Of a stretch of 64,000 nt of DNA, positions 1,617 through 35,421 are shown piece by piece; the first letter of the stretch is position 1; every line of letters begins with the position of its first letter. The notes below the pieces were generated by a model, which was not told where the DNA came from, ran no database searches, and worked only from the letters and a program-made list of their open reading frames with translations. Made by a program: the position numbers and the translations under genes. Origin of the DNA: an uncultured Planctomycetia bacterium (GTDB lineage: Bacteria; Omnitrophota; Gorgyraeia; Duberdicusellales; 4484-171); the NCBI GenBank assembly GCA_964489445.1, contig CAZAYU010000003.1:65172-129171 (forward strand). The letters are read 5' to 3'.

Positions 1617-1629
1617 ATAAGACAAAGTA

Positions 1630-2862: not shown

Positions 2863-2943
2863 AATATTTTGTTTTTAACCTAAAGAACAATATTCTATAG
2901 GCGTAAAGTTGAAAAGGCGAAAGAAAGTGGAGAAGCTAATATT

Positions 2944-4697: not shown

Positions 4698-4698
4698 C

Positions 4699-11181: not shown

Positions 11182-11896
11182 CAGCGGGAGAAAAAAAAAT
11201 TTTAGGGAGAATAGTTCTAATAATTATTTTAAAATCAAACCAAAGTGACCAACGCTTAATATAAAAAATATCACACAAAACCCTTTTCTTAATGGCCATG
11301 TTACTTCCTCGGTATCCATTTATTTGGGCCCACCCAGTCAATCCAGGCTTAATCCTGTGGCGGAATTCGTATTCAGCGATAGATTTTTTAAATTTATTTA
11401 CAAAGTAAGGTCTTTCTGGGCGAGGCCCCACTAAGCTCATGTCTCTTTTTAGGATGTTGATCAGCTGAGGTAATTCGTCCAAATGAGAAGTACGTAACAA
11501 CTGGCCAATTCTTGTGCATTGCGAATTATCTTCGCTGGGCCACATTGGGCCAGAGCAATTTTCGCTATTTTCTGGCATAGTTCGAAACTTATATATCCAA
11601 AAAGAGCTTCCATTTTCCTTACATCTTTTTTGACGGTAGAATATTTTTCCGGGGTAGTTTATTTTTATCATTAAAGAGATTAAAATAAATAGAGGGGAGA
11701 GAAAAAACAGGCCGACAGCAGAGAGGATAATATCTATTGTTGGTTTTATGAATTTGTAAGAAAAGCCGTCGATGCTTCTGCGCGTTGTCTGGCAATTTTT
11801 CGGTTTTATCTTTGACAGACAGAAAGTAGGAGGGGAAGATTTACGAACAGATGAATATTGATCTTCGGATATTGAGTTGTATTTACAGTTTTTCAT
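11141..11896 (-). CDS. initiating sugar-phosphate transferase (bacterial sugar transferase, PglC/WbaP C-terminal-domain type)
   Basis: PF02397-type motifs 'SLVGPRPERPYFV' and 'KPGLTGWAQING'. One N-terminal membrane helix. Confidence 0.8.
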   Translation of the reverse strand: MKNCKYNSISEDQYSSVRKSSPPTFCLSKIKPKNCQTTRRSIDGFSYKFIKPTIDIILSAVGLFFLSPLFILISLMIKINYPGKIFYRQKRCKENGSSFWIYKFRTMPENSENCSGPMWPSEDNSQCTRIGQLLRTSHLDELPQLINILKRDMSLVGPRPERPYFVNKFKKSIAEYEFRHRIKPGLTGWAQINGYRGSNMAIKKRVLCDIFYIKRWSLWFDFKIIIRTILPKIFFSPAATVETFPKMVSAS

Positions 11897-11928
11897 TTAA
11901 AAATAATACTTAACTGGTGCTAAATAGA

Positions 11929-13620
11929 TTATACTTTTGAAAGGCGAGAGCAGCATTGCATAAGATAATCCTTGTCTCTCGGCTTTATTCTCGTGAATTT
12001 TATTCCAGAGTTAAATGGTCCTCGACCATTTTCCAGCAAAGAAACCTCGTGAGACCAGATTACTTTACCCTTAGCTATTATCGAGGTTCCGTTAATAGCT
12101 TGTATTTCTAAATTAAGAATATCTTTCGTGTTCGGCTTATGCTCGCTACTAAAGCTTAATCCGGAATTACTAAAGTTAAGGCTAAAAGCTTGATATTTAA
12201 TATAAGGTTCTTTTAAGTGACTATATATTATATCAGTGGATAAAGGAAATCGTAAATTGTTTCTTAATTCTTTTCTCTGTTTATTTTTCTTAGCTGATCG
12301 AGGACTATCAGGTAAACTTATTGCAAAGGAACAACCTAAAGCAAAACCGGCAAAGAGCCCTAAAAGCATGTTCAGTGGAAGGTTTGGTCTTAAGGGATGC
12401 AAAGGTATTTGCGGTGGATCAATAATTTTAATTTTTGATGTATTGTTTATTCGGGAAATCAAAATTTGTAAATTAATTTTTTTACTCAAGAGGTCTTCGT
12501 AGATTCTCCTTTGGATGCTAAGATTGCTTAACATGCTAGATAATTTTGGTTGACTGGCGAGAGTCTTTTTGAGAGTTTTTGCGTAATTGTCATTTGATTC
12601 GGAAAGCACTTTTCGTTTGCTCTCTAGTGATTTTTTTTCTAAGCTGTATGATTCAATTTCGGAATCAATTATTTTAGTTTTTTCGTTTTCCAGTGTATTT
12701 TCTATCTCACGGATATTTTTGTAGGCGTTGATTACTTCTGGATGAAAAGAGGTATATTCGGTTGTAAGATTAGACAGAGAAATTTCTGCTGCTTGCAGCT
12801 TAGATTGAAGATTGTTAATTGTTTGGTTATTTGTAATAAATGGAAGTGATAAACTATTGATGCCGCTGGTAGCCAACTCTTTGCTTACCGCAGCCGCCTT
12901 AGTATTAACTTTTTGGATTTCAGAATCAACATCAATTAAGGATGAATCAAAACTAGCAAATCTTTTTAAATTAAGCACTATCTCTGTTTCTGGCAAGATA
13001 AATACCCCTTCTTTCTTTATGTACTCTTCAAGTTCTTTTTCAGCCTCAAGAATGGTGTTCAGCGTTGATTGCATAGTGCTGTCGATTGCCAAAAAAGAAT
13101 TATTAAGGGATATTTCTTGAGCAGTATTTATTGAATTGCTATAAGCAGAAATTAACGCAGTAGACAAAGATTTTGCTAGTGAGGGATCGGTATTCTCTAT
13201 TTTTAATTCTAAGATATTAGTTTTGTTTATTGGCACAGAAGATATGGTTTTTTGGAGGCGCTCTATATCGATAAAGTCTTTATCGCTTTGTTCTAGCAAA
13301 CGGGATGCAAGAATCTTGCTTTCTAGCGCTTTAGAAATGTTTGTTCTGCTTTTAATTATTTCTGCTTGGTCTTGTAAGAATTCTTCATTTTTTTTGTACG
13401 AAGGGGTGGTTTCTGAAGGGTTAAGGCTTTCTTCTTTTAGCATTATTTTACTATTTGTCTGATAAACAGGTTTGATGAGTAGCGTAGAAATAAAAACAAC
13501 GGAAAGGGTAGTAAATGTAAGTATAAATACTATACCCTTTTTTTCCCATAGTATTTGCCCGGCAGTCTTGGGAGAGGTTTTCATTTCAAGTAATGTTAAA
13601 TCGTTATTTGTTGGTTCCAT
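11929..13620 (-). CDS. polysaccharide co-polymerase (Wzz/PCP) with C-terminal PilZ domain, no tyrosine-kinase domain
   Basis: N-terminal Wzz-like TM segment, a long coiled-coil periplasmic region, then a second TM. The cytoplasmic tail has PilZ motifs RNNLRFP (RxxxR) and NFSNSG ((D/N)xSxxG). Confidence 0.7.
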   Translation of the reverse strand: MEPTNNDLTLLEMKTSPKTAGQILWEKKGIVFILTFTTLSVVFISTLLIKPVYQTNSKIMLKEESLNPSETTPSYKKNEEFLQDQAEIIKSRTNISKALESKILASRLLEQSDKDFIDIERLQKTISSVPINKTNILELKIENTDPSLAKSLSTALISAYSNSINTAQEISLNNSFLAIDSTMQSTLNTILEAEKELEEYIKKEGVFILPETEIVLNLKRFASFDSSLIDVDSEIQKVNTKAAAVSKELATSGINSLSLPFITNNQTINNLQSKLQAAEISLSNLTTEYTSFHPEVINAYKNIREIENTLENEKTKIIDSEIESYSLEKKSLESKRKVLSESNDNYAKTLKKTLASQPKLSSMLSNLSIQRRIYEDLLSKKINLQILISRINNTSKIKIIDPPQIPLHPLRPNLPLNMLLGLFAGFALGCSFAISLPDSPRSAKKNKQRKELRNNLRFPLSTDIIYSHLKEPYIKYQAFSLNFSNSGLSFSSEHKPNTKDILNLEIQAINGTSIIAKGKVIWSHEVSLLENGRGPFNSGIKFTRIKPRDKDYLMQCCSRLSKV

Positions 13621-13628
13621 ATTAGTAT

Positions 13629-14417
13629 TTATTCTGAATCCGCTAAATTTTCAATCGCTTCTACGTGACGATAGTTTATATAGGTATCAGCAAGTGGTTT
13701 TATGTTATCGTTAAAAAAAGATAAAAAATCTTTTATTTTCCCGACAAATTTTTTAGGAACAAAAACTATATCCCCTGCTTTTAGCGGGATATCTTCCTTG
13801 AGGTCTCCCTTTGATATAACATTTAAAAGGTTAGCAGACAGTATTTTTGGGCTATCCGAGTAAGCTTTACGGATAACCAGCACACTTCTTAAATGCGCAA
13901 ATTCTTTATACCCTTCAGCTGTAGCTAAGGCTTCCAGGACAGTTAATGGTCGGGACATTCTGTATATTCCTGGACGTTTTACTTCTCCTAGTATTAGAAT
14001 TCGTTGACTGCCAAAACCACTGACAATAATGGACACTTGAGGATCTTTTATATATTTGGCTAATCTTAAAGAAACCTCGTTTTTTAATTGTTCCGGCAGC
14101 ATATCTACTGCTTTGATTTCTCCGGCAAGAGGAAGAGACAGCCAGCCATCAGGGCGAATAGTGACTTCCTTGTTCAAATCTTCATTGCGCCAAACAGATA
14201 CTTCAATTTTATCTCCAACTCCTAAAATATATTGGGCGTTATCAAATTCTGCTCCAAAAGAAGGATTCACTAGTAAAGAAAGAAAACAAGTAAGTAGAAG
14301 CAGAGTAAATTTCAAATAAAATCTTGCTAAGTAATGATTAGTGTAAAGAGTAGACGTATTGCTTAAGTTACTACTATCCAAGTGTTTACAAATATATTTT
14401 TTGTTTGTATGAGTCAT
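13629..14417 (-). CDS. polysaccharide export outer-membrane protein (Wza/OPX: Poly_export + SLBB)
   Basis: Signal peptide, then 'YILGVGDKIEVSVWRNEDL...IRPDGWLSLPLAGEIKA' Poly_export motifs. The track ORF runs to 14684 and overlaps the tRNA, so it was trimmed to the in-frame ATG at 14417. The true start is uncertain. Confidence 0.7.
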   Translation of the reverse strand: MTHTNKKYICKHLDSSNLSNTSTLYTNHYLARFYLKFTLLLLTCFLSLLVNPSFGAEFDNAQYILGVGDKIEVSVWRNEDLNKEVTIRPDGWLSLPLAGEIKAVDMLPEQLKNEVSLRLAKYIKDPQVSIIVSGFGSQRILILGEVKRPGIYRMSRPLTVLEALATAEGYKEFAHLRSVLVIRKAYSDSPKILSANLLNVISKGDLKEDIPLKAGDIVFVPKKFVGKIKDFLSFFNDNIKPLADTYINYRHVEAIENLADSE

Positions 14418-14647
14418 AATAGTGTTATTTTCCTCGAAAAAGCTTATCATTGAATATACCATATTGCTGGAGGAATAGTCAATGTAGATAGCAATAAGTT
14501 TTGTAAACGTTTCCATCAAAAAGGCCTTATTGATGGCAGATTTCTTATCAGCGTGTATTTTTTCTTGGGTATTTTTAGAGAAAATGGTATAATTAGTCCC
14601 AATATTAGCGCTATTGATTAAAGCAGAAAGCGAATATTCTCTGAAAT

Positions 14648-14721
14648 GGCGGTGTAGCTCAGCCTGGCAGAGCAAACGGCTCATACCCGTTATGTCGGTG
14701 GTTCAAGTCCACTCGCCGCCA
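14648..14721 (+). tRNA. tRNA-Met (anticodon CAT; elongator Met or Ile2-lysidine type, not initiator)
   Basis: 74-nt cloverleaf folded by hand. Acceptor stem GGCGGTG/CGCCGCC, D-arm GCTC/GAGC, anticodon stem AACGG/CCGTT with loop CTCATAC, T-arm GGTGG-TTCAAGT-CCACT. CCA is not encoded. Confidence 0.85.
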
Positions 14722-20168: not shown

Positions 20169-20270
20169 CACAGCCCGTTAAGATGTTGGGGCCTAGGCAC
20201 TTAAGAATTACTATCCATGTTGAAAAAGATCGTTATAAATGGTAATCTTTTATTGGGGGGCAAATGTAAA

Positions 20271-20669
20271 ATGGCTCAAAATAAATGCCGATTAGGAAAA
20301 AAACTTCCTAAATATTTTCGAGGGTTTACGTTAATTGAAGTAATGATTTCTGTTGCTATTTTAACAGTAGTTGTTACTAGCTTGCTAATGTCTATAGTGT
20401 CTTGTGTGATGTTAAACCAGGCTAGCAGCAATTTAATAGTTGCCGCTAGCGATGCGCAAGATATCTTAGAGGATATAAAGAGCCTGCCAAACATTTATAA
20501 CGATATAGATAGTTATTTGCCACCAGGACTAAATAGTTTAACTAATGAAACGGTTAGTGTTAATGTCCTTCAAGTAAGCGAAGGATTAAAAGAGGTAACA
20601 GTTAATGTTGAGTGGGTGGATAAACAAAGGCAAAATAGTTTTCTGTTAACAACAAGGATTAACCGATAG
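20271..20669 (+). CDS. type IV minor pilin / pseudopilin (prepilin-type N-terminal methylation domain)
   Basis: 'RG|FTLIEVMISVAIL' class III signal with Glu+5. ATG at 20271 with a GGGGGG RBS; the track ORF starts at 20217. Confidence 0.65.
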   Translation: MAQNKCRLGKKLPKYFRGFTLIEVMISVAILTVVVTSLLMSIVSCVMLNQASSNLIVAASDAQDILEDIKSLPNIYNDIDSYLPPGLNSLTNETVSVNVLQVSEGLKEVTVNVEWVDKQRQNSFLLTTRINR

Positions 20670-20670
20670 C

Positions 20671-21273
20671 ATGAAAAGCGTTAATAAGAATAAAAAAAAA
20701 TATCGGATAAGGCGCACCAAAAGCTTAACTCTTGTTGAAACTTTGTTGGCGGTTTCAATTTTTATGGTCGTTCTTATGGGGTTTATGGCTAGCTTGAGTT
20801 TAGGCGAGGTATTCTTTCCTTTAAACTCAGCTAATGTAGATATGAGATCAAATGTTAGAGTAGCTATAAATTGGATTGTAAAAGATGCCAGACAGGCAGT
20901 AAATTGGGATATTGCCAATAATAATCCAGGAAGTTCTCATCTTAAGTTTCGTCGAGTCAACGGGTTAAACATTGACACAGGAGAATATTTACTGGATGAA
21001 GATTATATTGAGTACAATTATGATGCCAGTTCTTTTAAAATTGTTCGGAATTTAGTCAATTCTGAGGGAAATATTATCCGCTCTTGGGAATTTAATAATA
21101 TTAACCAAGCGCCTTTTTATACTCAACATAATGAAGAAGTTCAAGAATTTAATGAGAATTCATTTAGGGACAACGGAAAATTAATTGTGATAATCTCGGG
21201 GCAAAAAGAAATTAGAGGAGAAATGAACGCAGATTTTTCTCTAAGATCGGATGTAAAGGTGAGAAATGAATAA
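20671..21273 (+). CDS. minor pilin-like protein (non-canonical prepilin N-terminus)
   Basis: 'KSLTLVETLLAVSIFMVVL' hydrophobic pilin-like helix with Glu+5-like spacing but no Gly at −1. Confidence 0.45.
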   Translation: MKSVNKNKKKYRIRRTKSLTLVETLLAVSIFMVVLMGFMASLSLGEVFFPLNSANVDMRSNVRVAINWIVKDARQAVNWDIANNNPGSSHLKFRRVNGLNIDTGEYLLDEDYIEYNYDASSFKIVRNLVNSEGNIIRSWEFNNINQAPFYTQHNEEVQEFNENSFRDNGKLIVIISGQKEIRGEMNADFSLRSDVKVRNE

Positions 21274-22126
21274 AAAAGGATTTGCTTTAGTTGTAAGCTT
21301 GCTTACAGTATTGGCACTAAGTATTTTACTGGCCGGATTTTTTTTAAAAAGTATAAATGAAAAACATCTTGCTGAGAGATATGCTAATAGCATAAAAGCT
21401 TTTTGGTTGGCCGAAGCTGGAATTGCTGAAGGGATAAACAATTTACCTGGTAATGTTTCTAACTGTTTACAAGATGGATATTGCTATAGTGTTTTAGTTG
21501 TAAAGTTATCCGATGAGTACTACCAAATAAATTCGATAGGCACGGTTTCTTTGGCTTCTGGTGAGAAAGCAGAAAAAGAATTACAAGTAATTGTAAAAGT
21601 AAACCGTCCAGATTCTTCTAATTTTTCGCACGCAATAGAAACAACCGGCGAGCTACAAACGAGAGGAAGAGCGTACACGATTAACGGCACAATCAACGAG
21701 GAAGCTGCTTTAAATTTTGCTGATTTATTTGAATGTAGCAAAGAGGAGATGGAGTCAGCAGCTACTTACCTCTACGATGATGTTTTGCCAGAGCCAATTA
21801 ATGGAATAACGTGGGTGAATACAACTGATGGCAATGAATTAACAGTTGCTGGAAATATACAGGGTAGCGGAATTTTAGTTATTGCTGGCGACGTACACTT
21901 TTCCGGAACAATTGATATTGATGGTATAGTATATGTTATTGGAAAGCTAAGAATGTCTGGAACACCAACAATCAATGGAGCAATATTAGCTGAAAGCCAA
22001 GCGGAGGTTGATACTAGAATAGTCGGGCACGTTACTATTAATTATAATCCCGATACAATCAGTAGCGCTTTAATTTCTTTACAGGGGATGTCGTCAGAAG
22101 TTGTTTCTTGGCAAGAGGCCGAATAA
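21266..22126 (+). CDS. PilX-like type IV minor pilin
   Basis: 'KKGFALVVSLLTVLALSILL' PilX_N-type N-terminus. Confidence 0.5.
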   Translation: MNKKGFALVVSLLTVLALSILLAGFFLKSINEKHLAERYANSIKAFWLAEAGIAEGINNLPGNVSNCLQDGYCYSVLVVKLSDEYYQINSIGTVSLASGEKAEKELQVIVKVNRPDSSNFSHAIETTGELQTRGRAYTINGTINEEAALNFADLFECSKEEMESAATYLYDDVLPEPINGITWVNTTDGNELTVAGNIQGSGILVIAGDVHFSGTIDIDGIVYVIGKLRMSGTPTINGAILAESQAEVDTRIVGHVTINYNPDTISSALISLQGMSSEVVSWQEAE

Positions 22127-22311
22127 GTGAATGCAGGATGATTGTTTAATAAATTTTGTCCAACCCAGAAAGAGTTAATTTAAAAAAGACCGGCAATTGA
22201 CACTGATTATAAAAGATGATACCATTTATTAATGCAATATCTTAAAATTGCTTGATAGCCATAGGCTTACAATAACAATATTTCTTTATAATTTAAAAGG
22301 GAAGGGGAAAA

Positions 22312-23625
22312 ATGAATAAAAATAATTCTTTATCCAATCTAAGCTTAAAGCGAAGAATGTGGATTGCTATCTCATTAATCACTGTGCTTCCTTTGATTAT
22401 TTTTTTCTATTATGTCTATGGTTATGACATTTCCTTTTGGGCTACAGCAATTTTGGGGACAATTGTTTTTTTGGGTTGGTGGATAGTGTTTGAAGTATTT
22501 TCTTCCATTGTGGGCATGTGTACTCGTTCTCGCATTGCCTTGGGAAGAATTGGCGAAGAGGTTCCTTCAGCTTCTGATGAAGTGCAAAATTTAGAGAGTA
22601 TTATCAACTTGCTTTCCGATAAAGTTAAAGATAGTTTTAGCCAGCTAAAAGATTTTACCCGAATGACTGGAGAATTAAATAAAGAAGTGTCAAAAAAGGT
22701 GCTTATACTTTCCACGGTTCTCCAAGCTAATGACCTATTTTCAAAAGAGACTCCTGCTGAAGAAGTTATAAAATTTCTTGCTAATCACCTAAAAGAGTTA
22801 ATGGAAAACAAAGTTTGTTTTTGTAGTTTAAAAGAAAGTCTTCTTGAAGGGTTGAGAGTGGTTGCTTGCGAAGGGATTTCTTCTGCCAAAGTTAAAGAGT
22901 TTGGAGAAGGAAAGGATAGTGAAATACCGCGAATAGGCAAGATAATAGTAGTGGATAACTACAGTAAACCAGCTAAATATTTATCTTGGGCGAAAGAATT
23001 AGGTCTTAATAATTTAGCTATTTCTCCCATAATTTCTAGAGGGCAAATTGTAGGCATTGTAGGTATTGGGAATAAAAAAGATAACTTTTCTTTCGGAAAA
23101 GATGATCTAGATGTTTTAAATCTGTTTAGTCAAAATGTCACTTTAATTTGGGAGCACCAACGCCTTTCTTCTAAAATTGAAGAGCTGGAGGTATTAGATC
23201 ATTTAACTGGATTGTACAATGAAAAAATGATTAGTAAGAGATTGGATGAAGAAATCAAAAGGGCTACCGCCTACCAGCGTCCTTGTGGTTTTATTTCGGT
23301 TAAAGTTGTAAATTATAAAGATTTCCAAAAAAAATCAGGACAAATTGAAGCTGAAAGAAATCTAAAAATAATAGCCAAGAATCTGAAGAAATGCTTAAGA
23401 CCGATTGATATGGGCGGAAGAATATCTCCGGATGCGCTAGGAGCTATCTTGATAGAAAAAAATAAACGGCAGTCTCAAGAAATAGCTAGTAGCCTAGACA
23501 GTCTGTTAAAGAAGGGGTGTTCTGAAGAAATTGAATTATTGTTTTCTGTTGCAGAAAGCCCCATTGATGGAATTTCTGCAACAGAGCTGTTATCGTTCGT
23601 TCGGAAGCAGAAAAAAAATAAATAA
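22312..23625 (+). CDS. membrane signalling protein: 2 TM + GAF + degenerate GGDEF (GGRIS) with an RxxD I-site-like motif
   Basis: Two N-terminal TM helices and a GAF-like middle. The C-terminal 'DHLTGLYNE...LRPIDMGGRISPDALGAILIE' is a GGDEF fold with a dead active site and a retained RPID motif. Confidence 0.6.
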   Translation: MNKNNSLSNLSLKRRMWIAISLITVLPLIIFFYYVYGYDISFWATAILGTIVFLGWWIVFEVFSSIVGMCTRSRIALGRIGEEVPSASDEVQNLESIINLLSDKVKDSFSQLKDFTRMTGELNKEVSKKVLILSTVLQANDLFSKETPAEEVIKFLANHLKELMENKVCFCSLKESLLEGLRVVACEGISSAKVKEFGEGKDSEIPRIGKIIVVDNYSKPAKYLSWAKELGLNNLAISPIISRGQIVGIVGIGNKKDNFSFGKDDLDVLNLFSQNVTLIWEHQRLSSKIEELEVLDHLTGLYNEKMISKRLDEEIKRATAYQRPCGFISVKVVNYKDFQKKSGQIEAERNLKIIAKNLKKCLRPIDMGGRISPDALGAILIEKNKRQSQEIASSLDSLLKKGCSEEIELLFSVAESPIDGISATELLSFVRKQKKNK

Positions 23626-23628
23626 AAA

Positions 23629-24066
23629 ATGGAACCTAAAAGAAAAATTACTAAATTTCTAGGAGAGATTTTAGTAGAGAGGGGAGTCATTAACAATGCT
23701 CAGTTAAAAAAAGCTTTAGAAACCCAGAAACATGGAGAGGGGCTCATTGGAGAAGTAATTGTTGAGCTGGGATTTGCTAAAGAGGATGATATTGCTCATT
23801 GTTTGTCTTTGCAGTTTGGCTACCCTTATCTTCCTCTAGAAAACTATGAAATATCAGCAGAAATTGTAAAAATTATACCGCGCAAGGTTTGTGAATACTA
23901 TTGTTTGATTCCTATAGACAAAATAGGAGGAACGCTAACAATTGCTATGTCAAATCCTTTAAATGTGCAAGCGGTCGAAGATTTAGAAGATGTTGCTGAG
24001 TGTGATATCCAAATATTTGTGAGTACTCCTTCCGGAATCCGTAGCAGTATTAAAAAATTCTATTAA
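23629..24066 (+). CDS. stand-alone T2SSE_N / MshEN domain protein (putative c-di-GMP receptor)
   Basis: 'FLGEILVERGVINNAQLKKALETQ' matches the 24-residue MshEN motif RLGxxLxxxGxIxxxQLxxALxxQ. The rest is a GspE_N fold. 145 aa. Confidence 0.65.
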   Translation: MEPKRKITKFLGEILVERGVINNAQLKKALETQKHGEGLIGEVIVELGFAKEDDIAHCLSLQFGYPYLPLENYEISAEIVKIIPRKVCEYYCLIPIDKIGGTLTIAMSNPLNVQAVEDLEDVAECDIQIFVSTPSGIRSSIKKFY

Positions 24067-24068
24067 AA

Positions 24069-25808
24069 ATGAACAAGAACGAACATAGTTCACTTAATAA
24101 TAGTGAAACATCATTAAGAGGGTTTTCTGGATATCTATTAAAAAAAGGAGCTTTGTCTAAAGAGGAACTAGAAAGAGCCCTGACTACGCAAAAAAGAGAA
24201 AGAGAGTCTTTAGTAGGAATCATAGTTAAAATGGGATTTATCAAGGAAGAAATATTGCTAAATCTTCTTTCTGGCTATCTTTCTGTCCCGCCGGTTAGAG
24301 TTTTGAATTTAGATATCCCTAAGCAGATTTTAGGGTTGGTTCCTGAGAAAATTGCTCGCGCCTATCAAGTATTACCGGTAGGAATAATTGGCAATACATT
24401 AACCCTAGCCATGGGAGATCCATTAAATGTTTTAGCGATTGATGATATTAAAAAAATTACTAAGTGCGAAGTTAATCCGATAATTGCTCCTTTTTCTCAA
24501 ATTGCAAAAGCTATTTCTAATAACTATGCGCATGCGCCTACGGAAACAATAGAAGAAATAATTAAGGATCAGTCAGTCGATGCGTTAACTATAATTAAAG
24601 AAGGAAAGAGAGGTGTTTCTCAGGAAGAGATCTTTCGTTCAACCAAAGAAGCTCCGGTAATTAAGTTTACTAATGCTTTTCTTAGAAGAGCGGTTCATGA
24701 TAAAACATCGGACATTTTAATTGAGCCGCTAGAGAATACAAGTAGAGTGAGGTTAAGAATAGACGGTATACTAAGAGAGTTGGAGACTTTTTCTAAAAAA
24801 ATGCATCCGTTTATAGTGTCACGAATAAAAGTGCTATGTAATCTAAATATTGCTGAGCATCGCCTTCCTCAGGAAGGACGATTTCGCAGCAGAATTCTTG
24901 ATAGGGATGTAGACTTCAGAGTGTCCATATTACCTTCTAGCTTAGGAGAAAAAGTAGCGATAAGAATTCTAGACAAAACAGCTGCTATCTTAAACCTTGA
25001 TTTTTTAGGGTACGAAGATGATGTATTAAAAAAAATTAAACAGGATAGCTTAAAGGCTCATGGTTTGCTTCTTGCTTGTGGCCCTACTGGAGCAGGAAAA
25101 ACAACGGCTTTGTATTCGGTAATAAATCATATTTATAGTTCAGAAAAAAATATTGTTACAGTAGAGGATCCGATAGAATATCAGCTAAGAGGAATCAACC
25201 AAGTAAGCATTAATCCGGCTATTGGATTAACATTTGCTTCCGGGTTAAGATCAATATTAAGGCAGGATCCGGACATTGTAATGATTGGGGAAATTAGAGA
25301 TAAAGAAACTTCTGGGATGGCTATTAAGGCGGCTTTAACTGGTCATTTAGTTTTATCTACCTTACATACAACCACTAGCGCTGGTTCTGTTACTCGGTTG
25401 GTAAATATGGATATTGAACCTTTTTTACTTTCTTCGACGCTGTTAGGAGTTCTTGCCCAGAGATTGGTTAGAGTATTATGTCCAAAATGCAAAGAAAAAA
25501 GTAATTTAGCTGATGAGACAAGAAAAAAGTATTCACTAGAAAATAAAATTGTTATTTATAAACCAAAAGGGTGTAGTTTTTGTCAGAACATCGGATATAA
25601 AGGGAGGGTGGCTTTAAGCGAATATTTACAGATTTCTCCCTCAATCAAAAAATTAATTAACTCTTGCGTTTCAGAGGGGATTATAAAGAAAGAAGCACGC
25701 ATCGAAGGCATGCGTACTTTGCGAGAAGACGGCATTATAAAGGTAGAGAAAGGTCTAACAACGTTAGAAGAAGTAGTGAGAGTAACTGCAGCAGATGAAG
25801 ATCTATAG
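24069..25808 (+). CDS. type IV pilus assembly ATPase (PilB/GspE/MshE family) with N-terminal MshEN motif
   Basis: N-terminal 'FSGYLLKKGALSKEELERALTTQ' MshEN-type motif. Walker A GPTGAGKTT, Asp/His boxes, and a tetracysteine CPKC...CSFC. Confidence 0.9.
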   Translation: MNKNEHSSLNNSETSLRGFSGYLLKKGALSKEELERALTTQKRERESLVGIIVKMGFIKEEILLNLLSGYLSVPPVRVLNLDIPKQILGLVPEKIARAYQVLPVGIIGNTLTLAMGDPLNVLAIDDIKKITKCEVNPIIAPFSQIAKAISNNYAHAPTETIEEIIKDQSVDALTIIKEGKRGVSQEEIFRSTKEAPVIKFTNAFLRRAVHDKTSDILIEPLENTSRVRLRIDGILRELETFSKKMHPFIVSRIKVLCNLNIAEHRLPQEGRFRSRILDRDVDFRVSILPSSLGEKVAIRILDKTAAILNLDFLGYEDDVLKKIKQDSLKAHGLLLACGPTGAGKTTALYSVINHIYSSEKNIVTVEDPIEYQLRGINQVSINPAIGLTFASGLRSILRQDPDIVMIGEIRDKETSGMAIKAALTGHLVLSTLHTTTSAGSVTRLVNMDIEPFLLSSTLLGVLAQRLVRVLCPKCKEKSNLADETRKKYSLENKIVIYKPKGCSFCQNIGYKGRVALSEYLQISPSIKKLINSCVSEGIIKKEARIEGMRTLREDGIIKVEKGLTTLEEVVRVTAADEDL

Positions 25809-25869
25809 ATCTTAAAAACAAATAATGTAGTCCTGAGAAGATTAAATTTTTTAAATAAAAAGAAGCAAT

Positions 25870-27573
25870 ATGTCAATTAAAGAAAAAATAATAAACTATA
25901 TTCAGCAGAATAAGGAAATAGACAAAAAAGTTCTTCTAGAGATTACTAAAAGCGCCAATGATTATAACGCTCTTAAAAGTGCGTTGGTTAGTAATAAGTT
26001 TATCGACGAGGAAGAATTGCTGTTATTTTTTTCTCGAGAATTAAAGATCCCTTTTTTGGATTTAAAGAAGTATAGAATTCCTGCTGAGAATAAAAATTTA
26101 TTTTCTCAAGAGATTGCTTTTAAATATGCAGTGGTTCCTATTTGCAAAATAGGAACAGTGCTTACACTGGCTATTTCTGATCCCTTAGATGTTATTGCTT
26201 GTGATGATATTAAAATTATTACTGGTGTGGATAAAGTAGATTTAGTGCTTTCTCGTAAGGAGGATATTCTTAAATCATTGAAGGTATTGCATGGAATTAC
26301 CGAAGAAATATCCAATGTTTTGGAAGAAGATTCCTTCGAAGAAGAACTAAGCGAAACCAGCGATGGCAATGATAATTTAGAGGATCTAATAAGTGAGAGT
26401 AAACATCCTCCAATTGTTCGAGCGATTGACATGATTATCTATAGCGCTTTAAAAAAGAGGGCTTCGGATATTCATATTGAGCCTTACGAAGATAAATTGT
26501 TAGTGCGTTACAGGGTTGATGGAGTACTTAGTGATGAATTTAGTTTTCCGAAAAAAAATCAACGAGCGGTAATTGCGCGAATAAAAATAATTTCTTCTTT
26601 AGATATCACGGACTCTCGTCTTCCTCAGGATGGAAGATTTAAGGTGAGGTTTGAGAATAGAGAGATTGATTTCAGAGTTTCTACACTTCCTACTCATTTT
26701 GGAGAAAAATTTGTTTTAAGAGTTTTAGACAAAGATAGCTTGTCTGCAGGATTAAAAAATTTAGGATTTTCTTCCCAACCTTTAAAATTATTTTCCGAAG
26801 CAGTAAAAGCACCTTTTGGGATTATTTTAGTTACTGGTCCGACGGGAAGCGGAAAATCGACTACTCTTTATTCAATTATCAAGAAAATTAATTCTCCGGA
26901 TAAAAATATTATTACCATTGAAGATCCGGTTGAGTATCGTTTAGAAGGGATAACCCAAATTCAGGTTAATGCAGACATCGGATTAACTTTTTCTGCAGGT
27001 TTGCACTCAGTGTTGCGTCAATCTCCAGATATTATTATGGTTGGAGAAATTAGAGATTCAGAAACAGCAGATATTGCGATTAAAGCATCCCTAACAGGAG
27101 AAGTTATTTTGTCTACCTTGCATACAAATAGTGCTGTAGGTGCAATTACTCGGTTGAGAGAAATGGGCACAGAAGCATTTCTTCTAGGGTCTTCATTGGT
27201 AGCGCTTACTGCACAAAGACTAGCTAGAAAATTGTGCCCTAAGTGTAAAGAAAAGTATAAAATGGACCGCGGTCTACTCAAGAGAATGAAATTAGAGTCT
27301 TTATTAAAAGACAAAGAAGAAAATTATTTTTATCGCTCCAAAGGATGTTCTTTTTGTGGACATAGTGGATATTATGGAAGAATTGCTATCTTAGAAGTTA
27401 TTTTACTCGATGATAAAATAAGAGAAATGGTAGCGGGAAGAAAATCAGAAGAAGAAATTATTAAATATGCTAAAAAATTTAGGTCTTTTAATTCTTTGCA
27501 AAATGACGGGTTGCTAAAGTGTGTCGACGGAATAACTTCGATAGAAGAAATTATCAGGGTAACTACTGAATAA
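25870..27573 (+). CDS. second PilB/GspE-family secretion ATPase paralog
   Basis: GspE_N-like N-terminus, Walker A GPTGSGKST, tetracysteine CPKC...CSFC. Full-length PilB-type, not PilT-type. Confidence 0.9.
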   Translation: MSIKEKIINYIQQNKEIDKKVLLEITKSANDYNALKSALVSNKFIDEEELLLFFSRELKIPFLDLKKYRIPAENKNLFSQEIAFKYAVVPICKIGTVLTLAISDPLDVIACDDIKIITGVDKVDLVLSRKEDILKSLKVLHGITEEISNVLEEDSFEEELSETSDGNDNLEDLISESKHPPIVRAIDMIIYSALKKRASDIHIEPYEDKLLVRYRVDGVLSDEFSFPKKNQRAVIARIKIISSLDITDSRLPQDGRFKVRFENREIDFRVSTLPTHFGEKFVLRVLDKDSLSAGLKNLGFSSQPLKLFSEAVKAPFGIILVTGPTGSGKSTTLYSIIKKINSPDKNIITIEDPVEYRLEGITQIQVNADIGLTFSAGLHSVLRQSPDIIMVGEIRDSETADIAIKASLTGEVILSTLHTNSAVGAITRLREMGTEAFLLGSSLVALTAQRLARKLCPKCKEKYKMDRGLLKRMKLESLLKDKEENYFYRSKGCSFCGHSGYYGRIAILEVILLDDKIREMVAGRKSEEEIIKYAKKFRSFNSLQNDGLLKCVDGITSIEEIIRVTTE

Positions 27574-27603: not shown

Positions 27604-28818
27604 ATGAAATTATTTTATTATACAGTTAAGGACAAAGCAGGAAAAGTATTAAAGGGGTCAATAGAGGCAGAAACAGATAGCGCCCTAGTTTCCCATTTTC
27701 ATGATGAAGGATGTATAGTTTTTTCAATTAAGGAAATAAAAAATCAGAAGAGGAAAATAGTAAAAGGAAAAGTTAAAACCGAAGACTTGGTAATATTTTC
27801 TAGGCAATTTACCACATTGATTGAAAGCAGCATTCCCGTGGTAGAAGCCTTAGGCATTCTCAAAGAACAAGTTGAAAATGTCTATTTTAAAAGTGTTATC
27901 GAGTTAGTTCTAAAAGATGTCAAAGAAGGGGCAAGCCTTTCATCTGCCTTAGGAAAACACAAAAAAGTATTTCCCGATATTTATTTAAGTATGGTTAAGG
28001 CCGCTGAGGTATCAGGCAGCCTAGCAGAAATCTTAGATAGAGTGTCTGTTTATCTAGAAAAAAGTAATGCGTTAGCAAAGAAAGTAATGTCTGCTTTTTA
28101 TTATCCAATTGTTATTGTTATTATGGCAATTACGATAACTTCTTTTTTGATGTTTAAAGTTATTCCTACATTTAAAGGTATCTATGATTCTTTAGGAGGA
28201 GCGTTACCTTTGCCTACACAAATACTCATTAATATTACTGATAGTCTAACTCGTAAAGAATCTATTGTAATAATTTTGGTTCTATTAATTGGAGGGTTTT
28301 TTGGTTTTAAAAAATATATTAGTACCTCTAGTGGGCGAAGAAGATATGACCGGATTATTTTAAAAATTCCAGTTTTCGGTGATTTGTTAAAAAAGATAGC
28401 TATTGCTAAATTTTCTCGAACATTTGCTACTTTAGTAAAAAGTGGAGTGTCAATAGTTAAATGTTTAGAAATTGTAGCAAATACTTCAGGAAATAAAGTA
28501 ATTGAAGATGCGGTTTTGGAATCTAAAAAGTCTATTCAAAATGGAGAGACAATATCTGCTCCTTTAGAAAAAACAGGGGTGTTTCCTCCCATGGTGACCC
28601 GGATGATCTCTGTAGGAGAAAAAAGTGGGCGTCTCGAGCACATGCTATCTAAGGTCGCTCAATTTTATGAAGAACAAACAGATGCTATGGTTGCAGGTTT
28701 AAGTAGTTTAATAGAGCCGATAATAATAGCTTTTCTGGGAATAGTAGTGGGAGGAATAGTTGTTTCTTTATTTCTACCGATATTAAAAATAACTCAACAA
28801 ATAGGGGGTATGGGGTAA
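27604..28818 (+). CDS. type IV pilus inner-membrane platform protein PilC/GspF
   Basis: Two T2SSF repeats and 3 TM helices, ~400 aa. Confidence 0.9.
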   Translation: MKLFYYTVKDKAGKVLKGSIEAETDSALVSHFHDEGCIVFSIKEIKNQKRKIVKGKVKTEDLVIFSRQFTTLIESSIPVVEALGILKEQVENVYFKSVIELVLKDVKEGASLSSALGKHKKVFPDIYLSMVKAAEVSGSLAEILDRVSVYLEKSNALAKKVMSAFYYPIVIVIMAITITSFLMFKVIPTFKGIYDSLGGALPLPTQILINITDSLTRKESIVIILVLLIGGFFGFKKYISTSSGRRRYDRIILKIPVFGDLLKKIAIAKFSRTFATLVKSGVSIVKCLEIVANTSGNKVIEDAVLESKKSIQNGETISAPLEKTGVFPPMVTRMISVGEKSGRLEHMLSKVAQFYEEQTDAMVAGLSSLIEPIIIAFLGIVVGGIVVSLFLPILKITQQIGGMG

Positions 28819-28990: not shown

Positions 28991-29416
28991 ATGAGAAAAG
29001 GTTTTACTTTAGTCGAAATCATGATCGTTGTTGCAATAATTGCATTATTGGCAGTAATTGCTATTCCTGGACTTTTAAGAATGAGAGTTAACGCTAACGA
29101 AGCTAATGCGCAGGCAACTTTGAGGACTATTTCTACCGCATGTGAAAGCTACGCAGCTGCTAATAGCGGAAATTACCCAGCTAATGTTACCACTGTTCTA
29201 TACGGAGCCAATCCTAAGTATTTAAATGAAGATTATACCTTAGCCGCAAACAATCCACGCCAAGGATACACATTTGCGTGTGGGACCATGTCTACAGCAG
29301 GGTATACTTGCACAGCAAAGCCCACTAGTTGCACAACAACAGGGACAAAGAGTTTTACAGTGACAACTGGAGGAAGTTTAGCTACCGATTCTAGCTGTAC
29401 AGCTTCTGGTTCTTAG
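28991..29416 (+). CDS. type IV pilin (major pilin candidate)
   Basis: 'MRKG|FTLVEIMIVVAIIALLAVIAIP' class III signal. GGAGG RBS. Strong promoter and terminator flank it. Confidence 0.85.
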   Translation: MRKGFTLVEIMIVVAIIALLAVIAIPGLLRMRVNANEANAQATLRTISTACESYAAANSGNYPANVTTVLYGANPKYLNEDYTLAANNPRQGYTFACGTMSTAGYTCTAKPTSCTTTGTKSFTVTTGGSLATDSSCTASGS

Positions 29417-29443
29417 AAGAGGAACCTTCCGATGTGATAATAG

Positions 29444-29477
29444 GCCGCCTTTTGGTAAACAAAAGGCGGTTTTTTTA
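29444..29477 (+). terminator. rho-independent terminator after the pilin gene
   Basis: GGCCGCCTTTTG-gtaaa-CAAAAGGCGG stem (about 11 bp) followed by a T7 run. Confidence 0.65.
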
Positions 29478-32229: not shown

Positions 32230-32540
32230 TTTTTATTTTTGTTGGAATTATTATTTTATTTTTTTCTGCTGTTGTCAATTATGCAGAAGAAGAGCGTGAT
32301 CCATTTCTACCACTGGTTAATAAAAATGGGTTAGTGTTAATACCTACGGAAGTTGATGTTGGAGGGTTACAATTGGGAGGAATAATTTATTCGGAAGAAT
32401 CTCCAGTTGCGATTATTAACCAAGAAGTATTAAAACGAGAAGAAGTGATAGAGGGATATGAAATTATGGCAATAAATGAAAAAGAAGTTATTTTAAAGAA
32501 AGGAAATGATGAGTTTATCTTAAAACTGGAGGATGAATGA
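32205..32540 (+). CDS. PilP-like protein
   Basis: N-terminal TM, an 'EERDPF' motif and a C-terminal beta-domain. Confidence 0.5.
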   Translation: MLLNRKKIIFIFVGIIILFFSAVVNYAEEERDPFLPLVNKNGLVLIPTEVDVGGLQLGGIIYSEESPVAIINQEVLKREEVIEGYEIMAINEKEVILKKGNDEFILKLEDE

Positions 32541-34132
32541 AGAGAAGGAATAATAAAAAAGAAAAACAAAGAAAGGAAGAATATTTCCCGGTGTTTTTCA
32601 AAGGAAAGAATATAGCAGTCTTCGGTAAAAGAATATTGTTTATTTTATGCTTGTTATTTGCTTTTTGCTGTTGCGCGGCACCTCTAATTTATGCTCAGCA
32701 AGAGGTAATTTCAGTTATAAAATTTAAAGATGTGGGTATTAAAGTAGTTCTTCAATCAATTGCCGCTAAGGCGGAAAAAGATGGTGAGAAAGTCAATATT
32801 ATTGTTAGTCCCAATGTTGAGGGGCTAGTTACTGTCAAGTTAGAAAACATAAGTTGGCAGGAAGCCTTAGATGGCATAGTCGGAGCCTATAACTATGATT
32901 ATAAATGGATCGGAAATAATGTCATTCTGGTGGGAACGTTAGAAGAAATAAAAGATAAAGAGTTACGGGAACGTGAAATGCATGAAATAGAAGTTCCCCG
33001 AACAAAAGTATTTAAGTTAAGCTATCTTGATGCTAATGACGCAAAAAAGACGATAGAACCTTTATTGTCTGCAGTAGGGAGAATTTCGGTTTTAGAAGCA
33101 ACTGGGCAGGCTGGATGGGAATTTGGGACAGATGTTACTAAGCGGACACGCTCCAAAGAAGGTAAGATTTCTCGAACAAAAACTTTAGTTGTCTCTGACG
33201 TTTCCTCTACTTTAAAAGATATTGCCTTGCTTTTAGAAGAAATAGATATTAGACCTCAACAGATTTTAATAAAAGCTAGGATTATGGAGGTGAGTAATGA
33301 TTTTTTGAAGGATTTTGGATTTAGTTGGGGAACGGGCAGTGATGGTGCATCTCAGTCTACTTTACGGTTTCAGGAGATAGATAATAATGGGCGGAAAACA
33401 GTTGCTGGGCATATGTTAAACAGTGTTACTCCGAATATTTGGAATCCTTTAGAGGGAACGGCGTTTACACCATCTACTGCAGGGTTGCAACTTGCTTTTC
33501 AAAAGTTAACTGGGCAGCAGTTCGAAGTAATTTTAAGTGCTGTAGAGGAAGATGCTAACACGAATACTCTGTCTGCGCCGACAATTGTTACCTTAAATAA
33601 TCAGGAAGCTTCCATTCTTGTCGGGGAAAAATATCCGATTATAAAAACAGATACTAGTACGGAAACTAGTCGGATTGTCGGCGGATCATTAGAAGAGTAT
33701 AAAGATATTGGAATACAGTTGAATGTTGTTCCTCAGATTTGTGGTAAAAACAGTGAATTCATAAACATGATTGTTCATCCTGCAGTTACGTCGGAATCTG
33801 GAACGGTAAGCGTTAAAGCAGATAGCGATACAGTTCTTGTATCATATCCGATCATTGCTTCTCGCGAGGCAGAAACTCAAGTATTAGTTAAAGATGGAGA
33901 AACAATTGTTATCGGAGGGTTAATGAAGGATGTCAAGTCAAAAGAGGAAATTGGGATTCCATTTTTAAGCAGAATTCCTGTTCTCGGATGGTTATTTAAG
34001 CGTTCTACAGAGGATACACTTAAAATGGATTTATTAATTTTTATTACCGCTAAAATAATTGAGCCCGGAGAAATAATTTCCCAGGAAATTGTAAAAACAA
34101 AACAAGTTACTAATCAATTTAAAGGTAAGTAA
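32537..34132 (+). CDS. type IV pilus secretin PilQ
   Basis: C-terminal secretin domain 'TLNNQEASILVGEKYP...GIPFLSRIPVLGWLF' with N0/N1-like domains upstream. Confidence 0.85.
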   Translation: MKRRNNKKEKQRKEEYFPVFFKGKNIAVFGKRILFILCLLFAFCCCAAPLIYAQQEVISVIKFKDVGIKVVLQSIAAKAEKDGEKVNIIVSPNVEGLVTVKLENISWQEALDGIVGAYNYDYKWIGNNVILVGTLEEIKDKELREREMHEIEVPRTKVFKLSYLDANDAKKTIEPLLSAVGRISVLEATGQAGWEFGTDVTKRTRSKEGKISRTKTLVVSDVSSTLKDIALLLEEIDIRPQQILIKARIMEVSNDFLKDFGFSWGTGSDGASQSTLRFQEIDNNGRKTVAGHMLNSVTPNIWNPLEGTAFTPSTAGLQLAFQKLTGQQFEVILSAVEEDANTNTLSAPTIVTLNNQEASILVGEKYPIIKTDTSTETSRIVGGSLEEYKDIGIQLNVVPQICGKNSEFINMIVHPAVTSESGTVSVKADSDTVLVSYPIIASREAETQVLVKDGETIVIGGLMKDVKSKEEIGIPFLSRIPVLGWLFKRSTEDTLKMDLLIFITAKIIEPGEIISQEIVKTKQVTNQFKGK

Positions 34133-34136
34133 AGGT

Positions 34137-34934
34137 ATGTATTTTGAGCTTTATGGTCTAAAAAAAGCGCCATTTAATATTACTTCTGACCCGGAAGTTT
34201 TTTATGAAAGTTCTTCTCACCGGGAAGCATTAGCTGCTCTTATTTATGGAATAGAAGAAAAAAAAGGGATAATTCTGGTTACCGGTGAAGTGGGAACAGG
34301 AAAAACAACTCTTTGCAAAACTCTTCTTCACAGACTTAATCCCCGAATAAAAACCTCATTAATACTTAATCCTTACTTTAGTGAAGTGCAATTATTACAG
34401 GCGATTGTAGAAGATTTTGGTTTAAAAGCTGAGAAGAAAAATCGTTTAGAGATGGTTAAAAAACTAAATGCTTTTTTAGTTGAAGTAAGCCTTGAAGGAG
34501 GAGGGGCAGTGTTAATTATTGATGAAGCTCAGAATTTGACTAATCGCCAATTAGAGCAAGTTCGTCTCCTATCTAATTTAGAGACTTCTCATGATAAATT
34601 GCTGCAAATTATCATTGCTGGACAGCCGGAATTAATAAAAAAACTCAGTAGCTTTGATTTACGACAAATCCGCCAAAGAATATCAATAAAACATCGGCTT
34701 TCTCCGCTAAGTGAAGAAGAAGTAAAAGGATATGTTCGGTTTAGGCTAGAGAGTGCAGGTGGCGACGGAATTAATATTGTACCGGAAGGGTATAAAGTTA
34801 TCTATGAGTTTTCTAAAGGTATCCCTCGCTTAATTAACATATTGTGTGATCGTGCGTTGTTATGTGGATTTGTTAAAGAGAAAAAAACTTTTGATCGAGA
34901 AATATTTAAAGCTTGCGTTGAAGACCTTAAATAA
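34137..34934 (+). CDS. ExeA/GspA/MshM-like AAA ATPase
   Basis: 'LVTGEVGTGKTTLCKTLL' Walker A (AAA_22) and 'LIIDEAQNL' Walker B. Short form without a peptidoglycan-binding domain. Confidence 0.8.
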   Translation: MYFELYGLKKAPFNITSDPEVFYESSSHREALAALIYGIEEKKGIILVTGEVGTGKTTLCKTLLHRLNPRIKTSLILNPYFSEVQLLQAIVEDFGLKAEKKNRLEMVKKLNAFLVEVSLEGGGAVLIIDEAQNLTNRQLEQVRLLSNLETSHDKLLQIIIAGQPELIKKLSSFDLRQIRQRISIKHRLSPLSEEEVKGYVRFRLESAGGDGINIVPEGYKVIYEFSKGIPRLINILCDRALLCGFVKEKKTFDREIFKACVEDLK

Positions 34935-34953
34935 AAGAACAACAATAAAATAA

Positions 34954-35421
34954 ATGAGTATTATATATGAAGCCCTAAAAAAAGTAGAGAAGAACCAAGG
35001 TCTTAGGGAGAATAAAAAAAATACTGACGAAAAAGAAATTTTTAAAAGTAAAACTAGCAAAAATAGGTTTTTTTCAGGAAAGATAATTATTTTTATTTTT
35101 GTGGGGATATTGGTGTGTTTAGGATTAATCTTGAATTTAACAGGCAGAAAAGATAATCTCGAGATGATGGCAAATAAAACAACGGAAAAAATAGAAATTG
35201 TTTCCCAACAAGTGGAACAATATCCGGAAATCGTACCTGGTGTGTATGCTCTTGAAGGAGTTGTCCAGGACGGAGAAAATTCATTTGTGGTGGTTAACGG
35301 AAAAATACTAAAGATGTTTGACAAGATAGACGACTTTACAGTAAATAGAATTAGCGGAAATGAAGTAGAGTTGCTAAACCTTAAAGATAATAGTAAGCTA
35401 ATCCTTTCTCTTTCTTTTTAA
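34954..35421 (+). CDS. GspB/ExeB-like bitopic protein
   Basis: N-terminal 'SIIYEALKKVEK' resembles the GspB 'SYIL.AL.KAE' start. One TM helix. Confidence 0.4.
   Translation: MSIIYEALKKVEKNQGLRENKKNTDEKEIFKSKTSKNRFFSGKIIIFIFVGILVCLGLILNLTGRKDNLEMMANKTTEKIEIVSQQVEQYPEIVPGVYALEGVVQDGENSFVVVNGKILKMFDKIDDFTVNRISGNEVELLNLKDNSKLILSLSF

Follow-up and report, generated by a model that had tools for sequence, protein, structure and literature searches.

What does a protein that looks like a diguanylate cyclase do at the head of a set of pilus motor genes? The question is raised by a 64,000-nucleotide stretch of contig CAZAYU010000003.1, here called the window. In it, an open reading frame (ORF) at positions 22312–23625 encodes a 437-residue protein with a transmembrane hairpin, a stalk, a GAF domain, and a degenerate GGDEF domain. 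We refer to this protein as GGDEF*. The ORF was confirmed as real, and its relatives are of uniform length. We propose, with moderate confidence, that GGDEF* is a non-catalytic, membrane-anchored member of the GGDEF family, co-encoded with an MshEN protein and two PilB motors. It would serve as a dedicated accessory of type IVa pilus (T4aP) extension, an adaptor or sensor that gates PilB together with MshEN. Features given by position lie on the forward strand of the window unless marked (-).

A GGDEF domain predicted to be non-catalytic

The register of the GGDEF* domain (aa 295–437; 23194–23622) was set by aligning it with phmmer to three cyclases of solved structure (6d9m, 3i5a, and 5euh). 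A second check was a gapless BLASTP alignment to a canonical cyclase of the same window, encoded by ORF 61022–62173 (-). In all alignments, RPID falls on the RxxD motif, MGGRI on the linker (xxxRY), and SPDAL (aa 372–376; 23425–23439) on GG[DE]EF, the active-site (A-site) position. The original prediction, made from the sequence of this stretch, had read GGRIS as the active-site motif, but its GGRI belongs to the linker. It had called the start of the fold correctly. The conserved DxLTGLxN is present as DHLTGLYN (23197–23220), with D296, L298, and N303 kept in 116/116 members of the close family and T299 in 115/116.

SPDAL at the A-site is accompanied by losses elsewhere in the domain. K331-V-V333 (23302–23310) occupies the position of the metal-binding DxD of cyclases, where the same-genome cyclase reads D-I-D. 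In the same alignment Q339 stands for the guanine-binding Asn and E348 for an Asp; their counterparts in PleD are N335 and D344. The C-terminal phosphate-binding segment (AK..GRN; AK..GKN in the same-genome cyclase) is missing, and the protein stops after helix alpha4. In PleD, the phosphate-binding Lys and Arg of this segment are K442 and R446 (PMC3509222). At the A-site and the metal position, the losses extend to the relatives. Among 116 full-length relatives there are 67 different A-site pentapeptides, and GG[DE]EF is in none of them. Position 331, the metal Asp (PleD D327), is E, K, or Q in the close family. Such hypervariability of the A-site argues that there is no selection for catalysis. 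Judged by the A-site, the metal site, and the C-terminal segment, GGDEF* is predicted to be non-catalytic, and we reject its reading as a cyclase. The earlier expectation that it makes no cyclic di-GMP (c-di-GMP) is borne out by SPDAL, K331, and the missing phosphate-binding tail, insofar as sequence can decide.

The product of ORF 61022–62173 (-) serves as an internal control for its degenerate paralog. Its 383 aa make up a GAF-like/GGDEF protein whose GGDEF domain is full-length (2.9e-43, profile positions 1–161 of 161), and it carries the motifs DIDDFKKFND, GHIQGD, RKID, RYGGEEF, ERIRR, and ADKALYRAKKEGKN. By all signatures it is likely an active, product-inhibited diguanylate cyclase and a c-di-GMP source of the organism.

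A pilus cassette conserved in Omnitrophota

More than 120 clusters at 45–82% identity, uniform in length at about 436 aa, came from a word-indexed search, and all named clusters were Candidatus Omnitrophota/Omnitrophica. A locus scan with one genome per species gave 40 loci. MshEN (~148 aa) and then PilB lie directly 3' of GGDEF* in all loci with downstream DNA (44/45). A second PilB, PilC, and a pilin come next where the contig permits. The GGDEF* stop is separated from the MshEN start by a few bases, or overlaps it, in all loci but one, and this tight spacing suggests translational coupling. The gene had been described as heading the pilus ATPase genes. Two PilB genes do lie downstream across the loci, but the MshEN gene that directly follows it had been overlooked.

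Conservation of gene order reaches beyond the close clade. An exhaustive search with the non-GGDEF part of the protein (aa 1–292) yielded 129 representatives at E<=1e-10, of which about 100 are 430–490 aa long and align end to end at 22–45% identity. Gene context was sampled for six members of the relatives at about 25% identity (25–30%), and the order GGDEF*-MshEN-PilB-PilB was found in four. P0168 reads MreC, PBP2, RodA, radical SAM, HAMP-GAF-GGDEF*, MshEN, PilB, PilB, REC-HD-GYP, and PilC; a cluster-mate of P0168 is labeled Omnitrophota. P0174 has the same four-gene core with a second MshEN ahead of PilC, and P0140 has it between unrelated flanks. In P0161, MshEN and PilB come next, and the contig of P0149 ends too soon to show downstream genes. 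Since the four-gene core is kept despite differing flanks, the association points to a functional link rather than inherited synteny.

In the window the GGDEF* and MshEN genes are in the same frame, with TAA AAA between them and then ATG (23623–23631). Overlaps in other genomes run from 1 to about 100 nt, the upper values being inflated by the choice of the first possible start, and they give no evidence of a GGDEF*-MshEN fusion. In the close clade the upstream order (DUF212, LysM/YkuD, AccA, PadR) is also conserved. The slot between PadR and GGDEF* is variable within this otherwise rigid order. It holds a single-domain response regulator in L001 (7591–7965), L002 (7557–7925), and L003 (3446–3814), and four ORFs with no Pfam matches in L005. 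In the window this slot (20217–22126) contains three ORFs, and only the first (20217–20669) carries a prepilin N-methylation motif.

The titles of the 40 loci name Omnitrophota or Candidatus Susulua in 29, "uncultured Planctomycetia" in 8, "Methanosarcinales archaeon" in 1, and "bacterium" in 1. Non-Omnitrophota labels stand on the cassette contigs L013 (JAIWAR010000006.1), L006, L009, L011, L016, L040, L043, and L044, and may reflect mis-binning or mislabeling. Some Omnitrophota have been reported as predators of methanogens, which makes the archaeal label intriguing.

The MshEN partner and two PilB motors

The MshEN gene (23629–24066) starts 3 nt past the GGDEF* stop and encodes a standalone protein of 145 aa (Pfam MshEN, 2e-17). 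The c-di-GMP-binding motif is defined as [RKPN]hGxxhhxx[GAS]hhxxxxhxxxhxxQ, in two copies with a 5-residue spacer (PMC5013675). The window protein has two 24-residue motifs with a 5-residue spacer and reads FLGEILVERGVINNAQLKKALETQ-KHGEG-LIGEVIVELGFAKEDDIAHCLSLQ. The first residues of its motifs, F and L, fall outside the relaxed set. We scored the proteins with NF053729, the NCBIfam model of the c-di-GMP motif (cutoff 38). The window MshEN reaches 59.2 bits and seven other standalone MshEN proteins, including those of distant cassettes, reach 56.6–65.1, so that 8/8 pass. The motif consensus is at least 90% conserved over 40 species, and MshEN is better conserved than GGDEF* (57–76% versus 42–61% identity). 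The standalone MshEN is the best-supported predicted c-di-GMP sensor of the cassette.

Two PilB-type extension ATPases follow, PilB1 (579 aa; 24069–25808; T2SSE, 6e-125) and PilB2 (567 aa; 25870–27573; T2SSE, 3.1e-133). On NF053729, PilB1 scores 36.5 in the window (below the cutoff), 30–44 in the close clade, 48–55 in three distant lineages, and 23.8 in the distant L052. PilB2 has no match in the window and the close clade. In distant lineages it scores 49.6, 30.0, and no match. Consensus strings had led to the view that both PilBs had lost the c-di-GMP motif. The hidden Markov model corrected this: PilB1 is borderline in the clade and intact in distant lineages, and a clear loss of the motif is predicted only for PilB2.

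The tandem of PilB-type ATPases (24069–27573 in the window; L001–L052) is conserved throughout the cassettes of the family. In one distant cassette (L051, 13034–13495) a second standalone MshEN, with 63.4 bits on NF053729, lies between PilB2 and PilC.

Domain architecture and a conserved pole

The transmembrane, GAF, and degenerate GGDEF architecture had been predicted, and Pfam matches, hydropathy, and structure prediction all agree with it. Pfam GGDEF (PF00990) matches aa 295–401 (E 1e-15, 58.3 bits, profile positions 3–109 of 161), and GAF_2 and GAF match aa 150–279. GAF and GGDEF are each over the curated cutoff. NCBIfam gave generic GGDEF-domain matches alone, far under every equivalog threshold. 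An AlphaFold2 model was built from 33 relatives (mean pLDDT 78; about 85 over GAF and GGDEF). It shows a GAF fold and a palm-like GGDEF fold for the C-terminal domain, the fold that the original prediction had named.

The protein begins with a Lys/Arg-rich N-terminus, followed by hydrophobic segments at about aa 14–38 and 40–70. The model has helices at 12–35 and 42–80 with a six-residue loop between them. Together with conservation, this defines an N-in/C-in transmembrane hairpin (aa ~12–66; 22345–22509). With an outer loop of only about six residues, the hairpin leaves no space for a sensor domain in the periplasm. After a loop (81–89) comes a long helix (90–144). This helix-loop-helix forms a stalk that may be HAMP-like (aa 67–146; 22510–22749) and holds the most conserved block of the protein (...LSTILQANDLFSK...). 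Pfam HAMP has no match in the window protein at E<=0.01. Distant full-length homologs carry PF00672 (HAMP), and the model of the window protein shows helix-loop-helix at 42–80, 81–89, and 90–144. The GAF core (aa ~147–262; 22750–23097) is joined to GGDEF* by a signaling helix (aa 263–294; 23098–23193), modeled at 263–292, and the model ends after alpha4.

Mean column identity in the close family is 0.76 in the signaling helix, 0.72 in the stalk, 0.68 in GGDEF*, 0.64 in the transmembrane hairpin, and 0.49 in the GAF core, the least conserved part. That GGDEF* (0.68) exceeds GAF (0.49) indicates purifying selection on the dead domain. In the hairpin, P27 is near-invariant and G55-W56 is invariant. 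In GGDEF*, E382 and R386 of the E382-K-N384-K-R386 segment after beta3 (23455–23469) are invariant in the close family, and N384 is kept in 115/116.

An 88-member extended alignment shares the signatures D296, T299, E313/E314, R317, Q322-R323-P324-C325, R370, E382, K385, E415, P417, D419, and G420. We take D296, T299, and R370 to be generic features of the GGDEF fold. The signature Y321-Q322-R323-P324-C325 (23272–23286) lies just ahead of beta1, at whose start C325 is found in 87/88 members. The same-genome cyclase reads AKLPL at this position. In the predicted secondary structure, R317, Y321–C325, and R363/D366 flank the N-termini of beta1 and beta2, and E382–R386 and E415–G420 flank the C-termini of beta3 and beta4. 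From the ferredoxin-like palm topology, we infer that the conserved residues cluster on the pole opposite the A-site hairpin (beta2-beta3), which is the pole of the inhibitory site (I-site). The GAF domain has a CFC motif (aa 169–171) that is kept in the close family only, with C171 at 96%. A role of C325 or the CFC cysteines in redox or metal sensing is conceivable.

Proposed mechanism

We suggest that GGDEF* is a membrane-tethered adaptor or sensor. The transmembrane, stalk, and GAF module would report a state of the membrane or cytoplasm, for example of the pilus platform or the pilin pool. The protein lacks a periplasmic domain and conserves residues inside its membrane helices, so the second input that this module would supply could be intramembrane. 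Docking of the MshEN adaptor, the N-domains of PilB, and/or c-di-GMP would fall to the I-site pole that is conserved in the dead GGDEF domain. In this way c-di-GMP, made for example by the 61022–62173 cyclase, would gate the recruitment or activity of PilB1 and PilB2. The step of c-di-GMP sensing would be placed most securely in the MshEN partner. A degenerate c-di-GMP-domain protein acting with a small adaptor and PilB has a precedent in FimX-PilZ-PilB (PMC11656802; PMC8389850).

Several points weigh against this proposal. The clustering on one pole comes from fold topology and the order of secondary structure in the model, not from coordinates. Part of the ExNKR segment may be typical of the lineage rather than functional, because the active cyclase of the same genome reads GNNKQ there. 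The distant member P0187 has a PilT-like ATPase directly after GGDEF*, not MshEN. A complete Omnitrophota genome (CP070797.1; L002/L035) has a broken cassette, in which GGDEF* and MshEN are intact, PilB1 is truncated (297 aa), and unrelated opposite-strand genes stand in place of PilB2, PilC, and the pilin. Adjacency of genes, finally, is no proof of a physical complex.

A stricter form of the proposal strikes us as unlikely. Here GGDEF* and the free MshEN would make up a hitherto undescribed membrane-tethered two-protein c-di-GMP switch, a "split MshE", in which MshEN is detached from the motor and presented to two PilBs by the dead-cyclase sensor. The MshEN motifs and the conserved I-site pole of GGDEF* may hold c-di-GMP between them. 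If true, such a switch would set both the timing of extension and the motor used for the pili with which Omnitrophota are thought to attach to host cells or prey on them.

The RxxD motif as a second input

The strongest alternative is that GGDEF* is itself a PelD-like I-site receptor, in which c-di-GMP bound at R363/D366 switches pilus assembly on or off. We consider this possible but doubtful. R363-P-I-D366 (23398–23409) lies five residues upstream of SPDAL, the canonical I-site spacing. The earlier placement of RPID at the RxxD I-site was therefore right in register, but the spacing is canonical only once the A-site is corrected. RxxD retains its Arg in 104/116 members of the close family and its Asp in 116/116. 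By the offset of the phmmer alignments, R317 corresponds to PleD R313, the secondary I-site Arg. A degenerate A-site with an intact RxxD is an established type of receptor, represented by PopA, SgmT, and PelD (PMC3509222, PMC7112168). The organism, moreover, very probably makes c-di-GMP.

Against this stands the third I-site Arg, sought as an Arg on alpha3 about 28–32 residues past the I-site Asp (PleD R390; SgmT R794; PelD R402 in P. aeruginosa, Pa, and R395 in B. cereus, Bc). GGDEF* has Ser394 there (D366+28). In the close family this residue is N, K, E, or S, but it is an Arg (ERIRR) in the cyclase of the same genome. At position 398, K is found in 42/116 members of the close family and R in 9/116, and the invariant R386 lies two helical turns before the third-Arg position. 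In PelD, R367/D370/R402 (Pa) and R363/D366/R395 (Bc) are each needed to bind c-di-GMP, and an Ala mutant at the third Arg alone abolishes binding by the Bc protein (PMC7112168). In SgmT the triad is R763/D766/R794, and R763A abolishes binding (PMC3509222).

The motif also fades with distance. Its Arg is found in only 24/88 members of the extended family, though the pilus cassette is retained. The invariant D366 and R370 are generic to the GGDEF fold. A far better-supported c-di-GMP site lies in the next gene, that of MshEN. Direct binding at the RxxD of GGDEF* is thus at most a tentative suggestion, as a possible clade-specific second input.

Two candidate substitutes for the lost basic residues were considered. 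One basic residue at position 363 or 367 is found in 77/88 of the extended family, and both in 5. This apparent exclusivity follows clade structure and may be a single evolutionary event, and we do not take it to show compensation. The ExNKR segment (382–386) was considered as a family-specific stand-in for the missing I-site Arg. This idea is weakened by GNNKQ in the same-genome cyclase and by the persistence of ExNKR in relatives without the RxxD Arg.

Weaker alternatives

GGDEF* could instead be a nucleotide-independent scaffold or intramembrane sensor. The hairpin would sense pilin or the platform, the dead GGDEF domain would be a protein-protein module, and RxxD would be a relic. PilS, which senses PilA, offers an analogy for such sensing in the membrane. 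The lack of a periplasmic domain, P27 and G55-W56 inside the membrane helices, and the stalk and signaling helix as the most conserved regions are all consistent with this view. So are the missing third Arg and an RxxD Arg that most of the extended family can do without. However, in a clade with no more than 42–61% identity among its members, 90% retain this Arg. The cassette is also saturated with c-di-GMP parts, with MshEN everywhere and HD-GYP in one lineage. We judge a scaffold unlikely. It overlaps with our preferred explanation, from which it differs solely in that GGDEF* makes no nucleotide contact.

Many relatives are named "diguanylate cyclase" in source databases (NCBI/JGI annotation), which would make GGDEF* a local supply of c-di-GMP for the adjoining MshEN and PilB. 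The Pfam and TIGR GGDEF models score over threshold, and some distant members have near-canonical A-sites (GGDEF in P0187; GGNQF or GDDEF elsewhere). Yet the Mg-Asp position is Asn even in P0187. GGDEF* combines SPDAL and K331 with a missing phosphate-binding tail, and the A-site of its relatives is hypervariable. An active cyclase is highly improbable, and the name is wrong for many relatives because GG[DE]EF and the metal Asp are lost among them. More than 100 "diguanylate cyclase" entries appear to be systematically misannotated in this way, a point to be heeded when genes of c-di-GMP turnover are counted in uncultured phyla. A sensor of GTP or another nucleotide that uses a remnant of the A-site, as in the degenerate GGDEF domain of FimX, is scarcely credible either, given Q or R at the guanine-binding Asn position, the lost metal site and C-terminal phosphate-binding segment, and a hypervariable A-site loop.

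Comparison with known systems

The original prediction likened the protein to PelD and suggested comparison with FimX and SgmT. The logic of a dead A-site with RxxD is shared, but the third Arg, the EAL and PilZ partners, and the pel context are missing. Like PelD, the c-di-GMP receptor for Pel polysaccharide, GGDEF* has a membrane anchor, a GAF domain, and a dead GGDEF domain with RxxD, and is encoded within the operon of its presumed target machine. GGDEF* has two transmembrane helices and a stalk that may be HAMP-like, and the resemblance is architectural only. PelD (for example PDB 4DN0) is absent from the top fold matches, which show no specific similarity to it. No pel genes (PelE/F/G) were found around the gene. 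Its neighbors are minor pilins, MshEN, two PilBs, PilC, and PilA, a context kept in 40 genomes. PelD and SgmT have the third I-site Arg where GGDEF* has Ser. Membership of the PelD family is ruled out by the fold matches, the absent pel genes, and the missing Arg.

The closest functional analogy to GGDEF*-MshEN-PilB is FimX-PilZ-PilB of Xanthomonas and Pseudomonas (PMC11656802; PMC8389850). FimX is cytoplasmic and polar, binds c-di-GMP by a degenerate EAL domain, and works with a PilZ-fold adaptor. GGDEF* is membrane-anchored, with MshEN as the candidate adaptor. Searches with Pfam and NCBIfam gave neither an EAL domain for the protein nor a PilZ gene for the operon, so it is not of the FimX type. 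In MshE, PilB2 of C. perfringens, and PilF of Thermus, pilus extension is controlled by the same c-di-GMP-binding unit, which is 53 residues long (PMC5013675, PMC11656802). There MshEN is fused to the ATPase, whereas the best-conserved MshEN of this cassette is a separate 145-aa polypeptide.

SgmT of M. xanthus and PopA of C. crescentus share the dead A-site and an RxxD at canonical spacing. SgmT has a GAF domain too and affects T4P-dependent motility (PMC3509222). Both are soluble, and neither has an MshEN partner or a place in a pilus operon. SgmT, a histidine kinase, has retained the secondary Arg R794, which GGDEF* lacks. In biological terms the closest counterpart is CdgA, which in Bdellovibrio bacteriovorus is found at the pilus pole (PMC3983030). 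It works by way of RomR and a TPR-protein hub. Descriptions of it mention neither membrane anchoring nor encoding together with pilB, and its comparison with GGDEF* covers the GGDEF fold. GGDEF* is a member of none of the PelD, FimX, and CdgA families.

Receptors with a degenerate GGDEF domain are established, as is the control of PilB by c-di-GMP. What appears new is a T4aP-dedicated family of dead GGDEF proteins across the sampled Omnitrophota, the detached MshEN with which it is obligately paired, and the tandem PilB arrangement. The main genomic survey of Omnitrophota has 0 occurrences of c-di-GMP, GGDEF, or diguanylate (PMC10066038). A recent review of PilB cofactors does not mention GAF or a standalone MshEN (PMC11656802). 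Omnitrophota have been proposed to be predators or epibionts that rely on T4aP (PMC10066038). T4aP are considered central to this host-attached or predatory lifestyle, and the cassette, present wherever the family was sampled in the phylum, offers a concrete, testable candidate for a regulatory module. An MshEN on a separate polypeptide could also help to dissect how MshEN controls PilB-type motors, which is unclear even in model organisms (PMC11656802).

Operon features and other c-di-GMP genes

A promoter-like site, TTGACA-17-TACCAT with a TG-extended -10, was found by consensus match at 22197–22225, in the 185-nt gap upstream of GGDEF*. The site is plausible because the gene has no other sizeable intergenic gap upstream. 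PilB2 is followed by PilC (27604–28818; T2SSF, 6e-61; NCBIfam PilC/GspF) and a candidate major pilin, PilA (28991–29416), with an N_methyl motif. A strong intrinsic-terminator-like hairpin (13 bp stem and T-run; 29442–29472) closes the putative operon after pilA. Overall counts in the promoter and terminator scan were not above shuffle expectation, and only the positions of these two sites were used. PilM, PilN, and a secretin lie farther downstream in the window.

Signaling by c-di-GMP is otherwise evident in the gene content, namely the window cyclase, a Wzz-PilZ gene, and HD-GYP in one distant cassette. The Wzz-PilZ gene (11929–13620, -) encodes a Wzz-GNVR polysaccharide co-polymerase with a C-terminal PilZ domain. 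It belongs to a large exopolysaccharide (EPS) cluster (84–14684) with radical SAM/B12 enzymes, glycosyltransferases, Wzy, a sugar transferase, and Poly_export. This suggests that c-di-GMP may also regulate the chain length or the export of EPS, some 8 kb away from the pilus cluster. In a distant relative (L049, 11453–12523; L050, 11496–12566), a response-regulator/HD-GYP-type gene (HD_5) lies between PilB2 and PilC. HD-GYP domains are c-di-GMP phosphodiesterases, so degradation of c-di-GMP would sit inside that pilus operon.

Directly after the secretin gene (32537–34132), the stretch 34137–35421 encodes an AAA_22 ATPase (265 aa) and a small CdsD_C-like protein, possible ExeA-like secretin-assembly factors.

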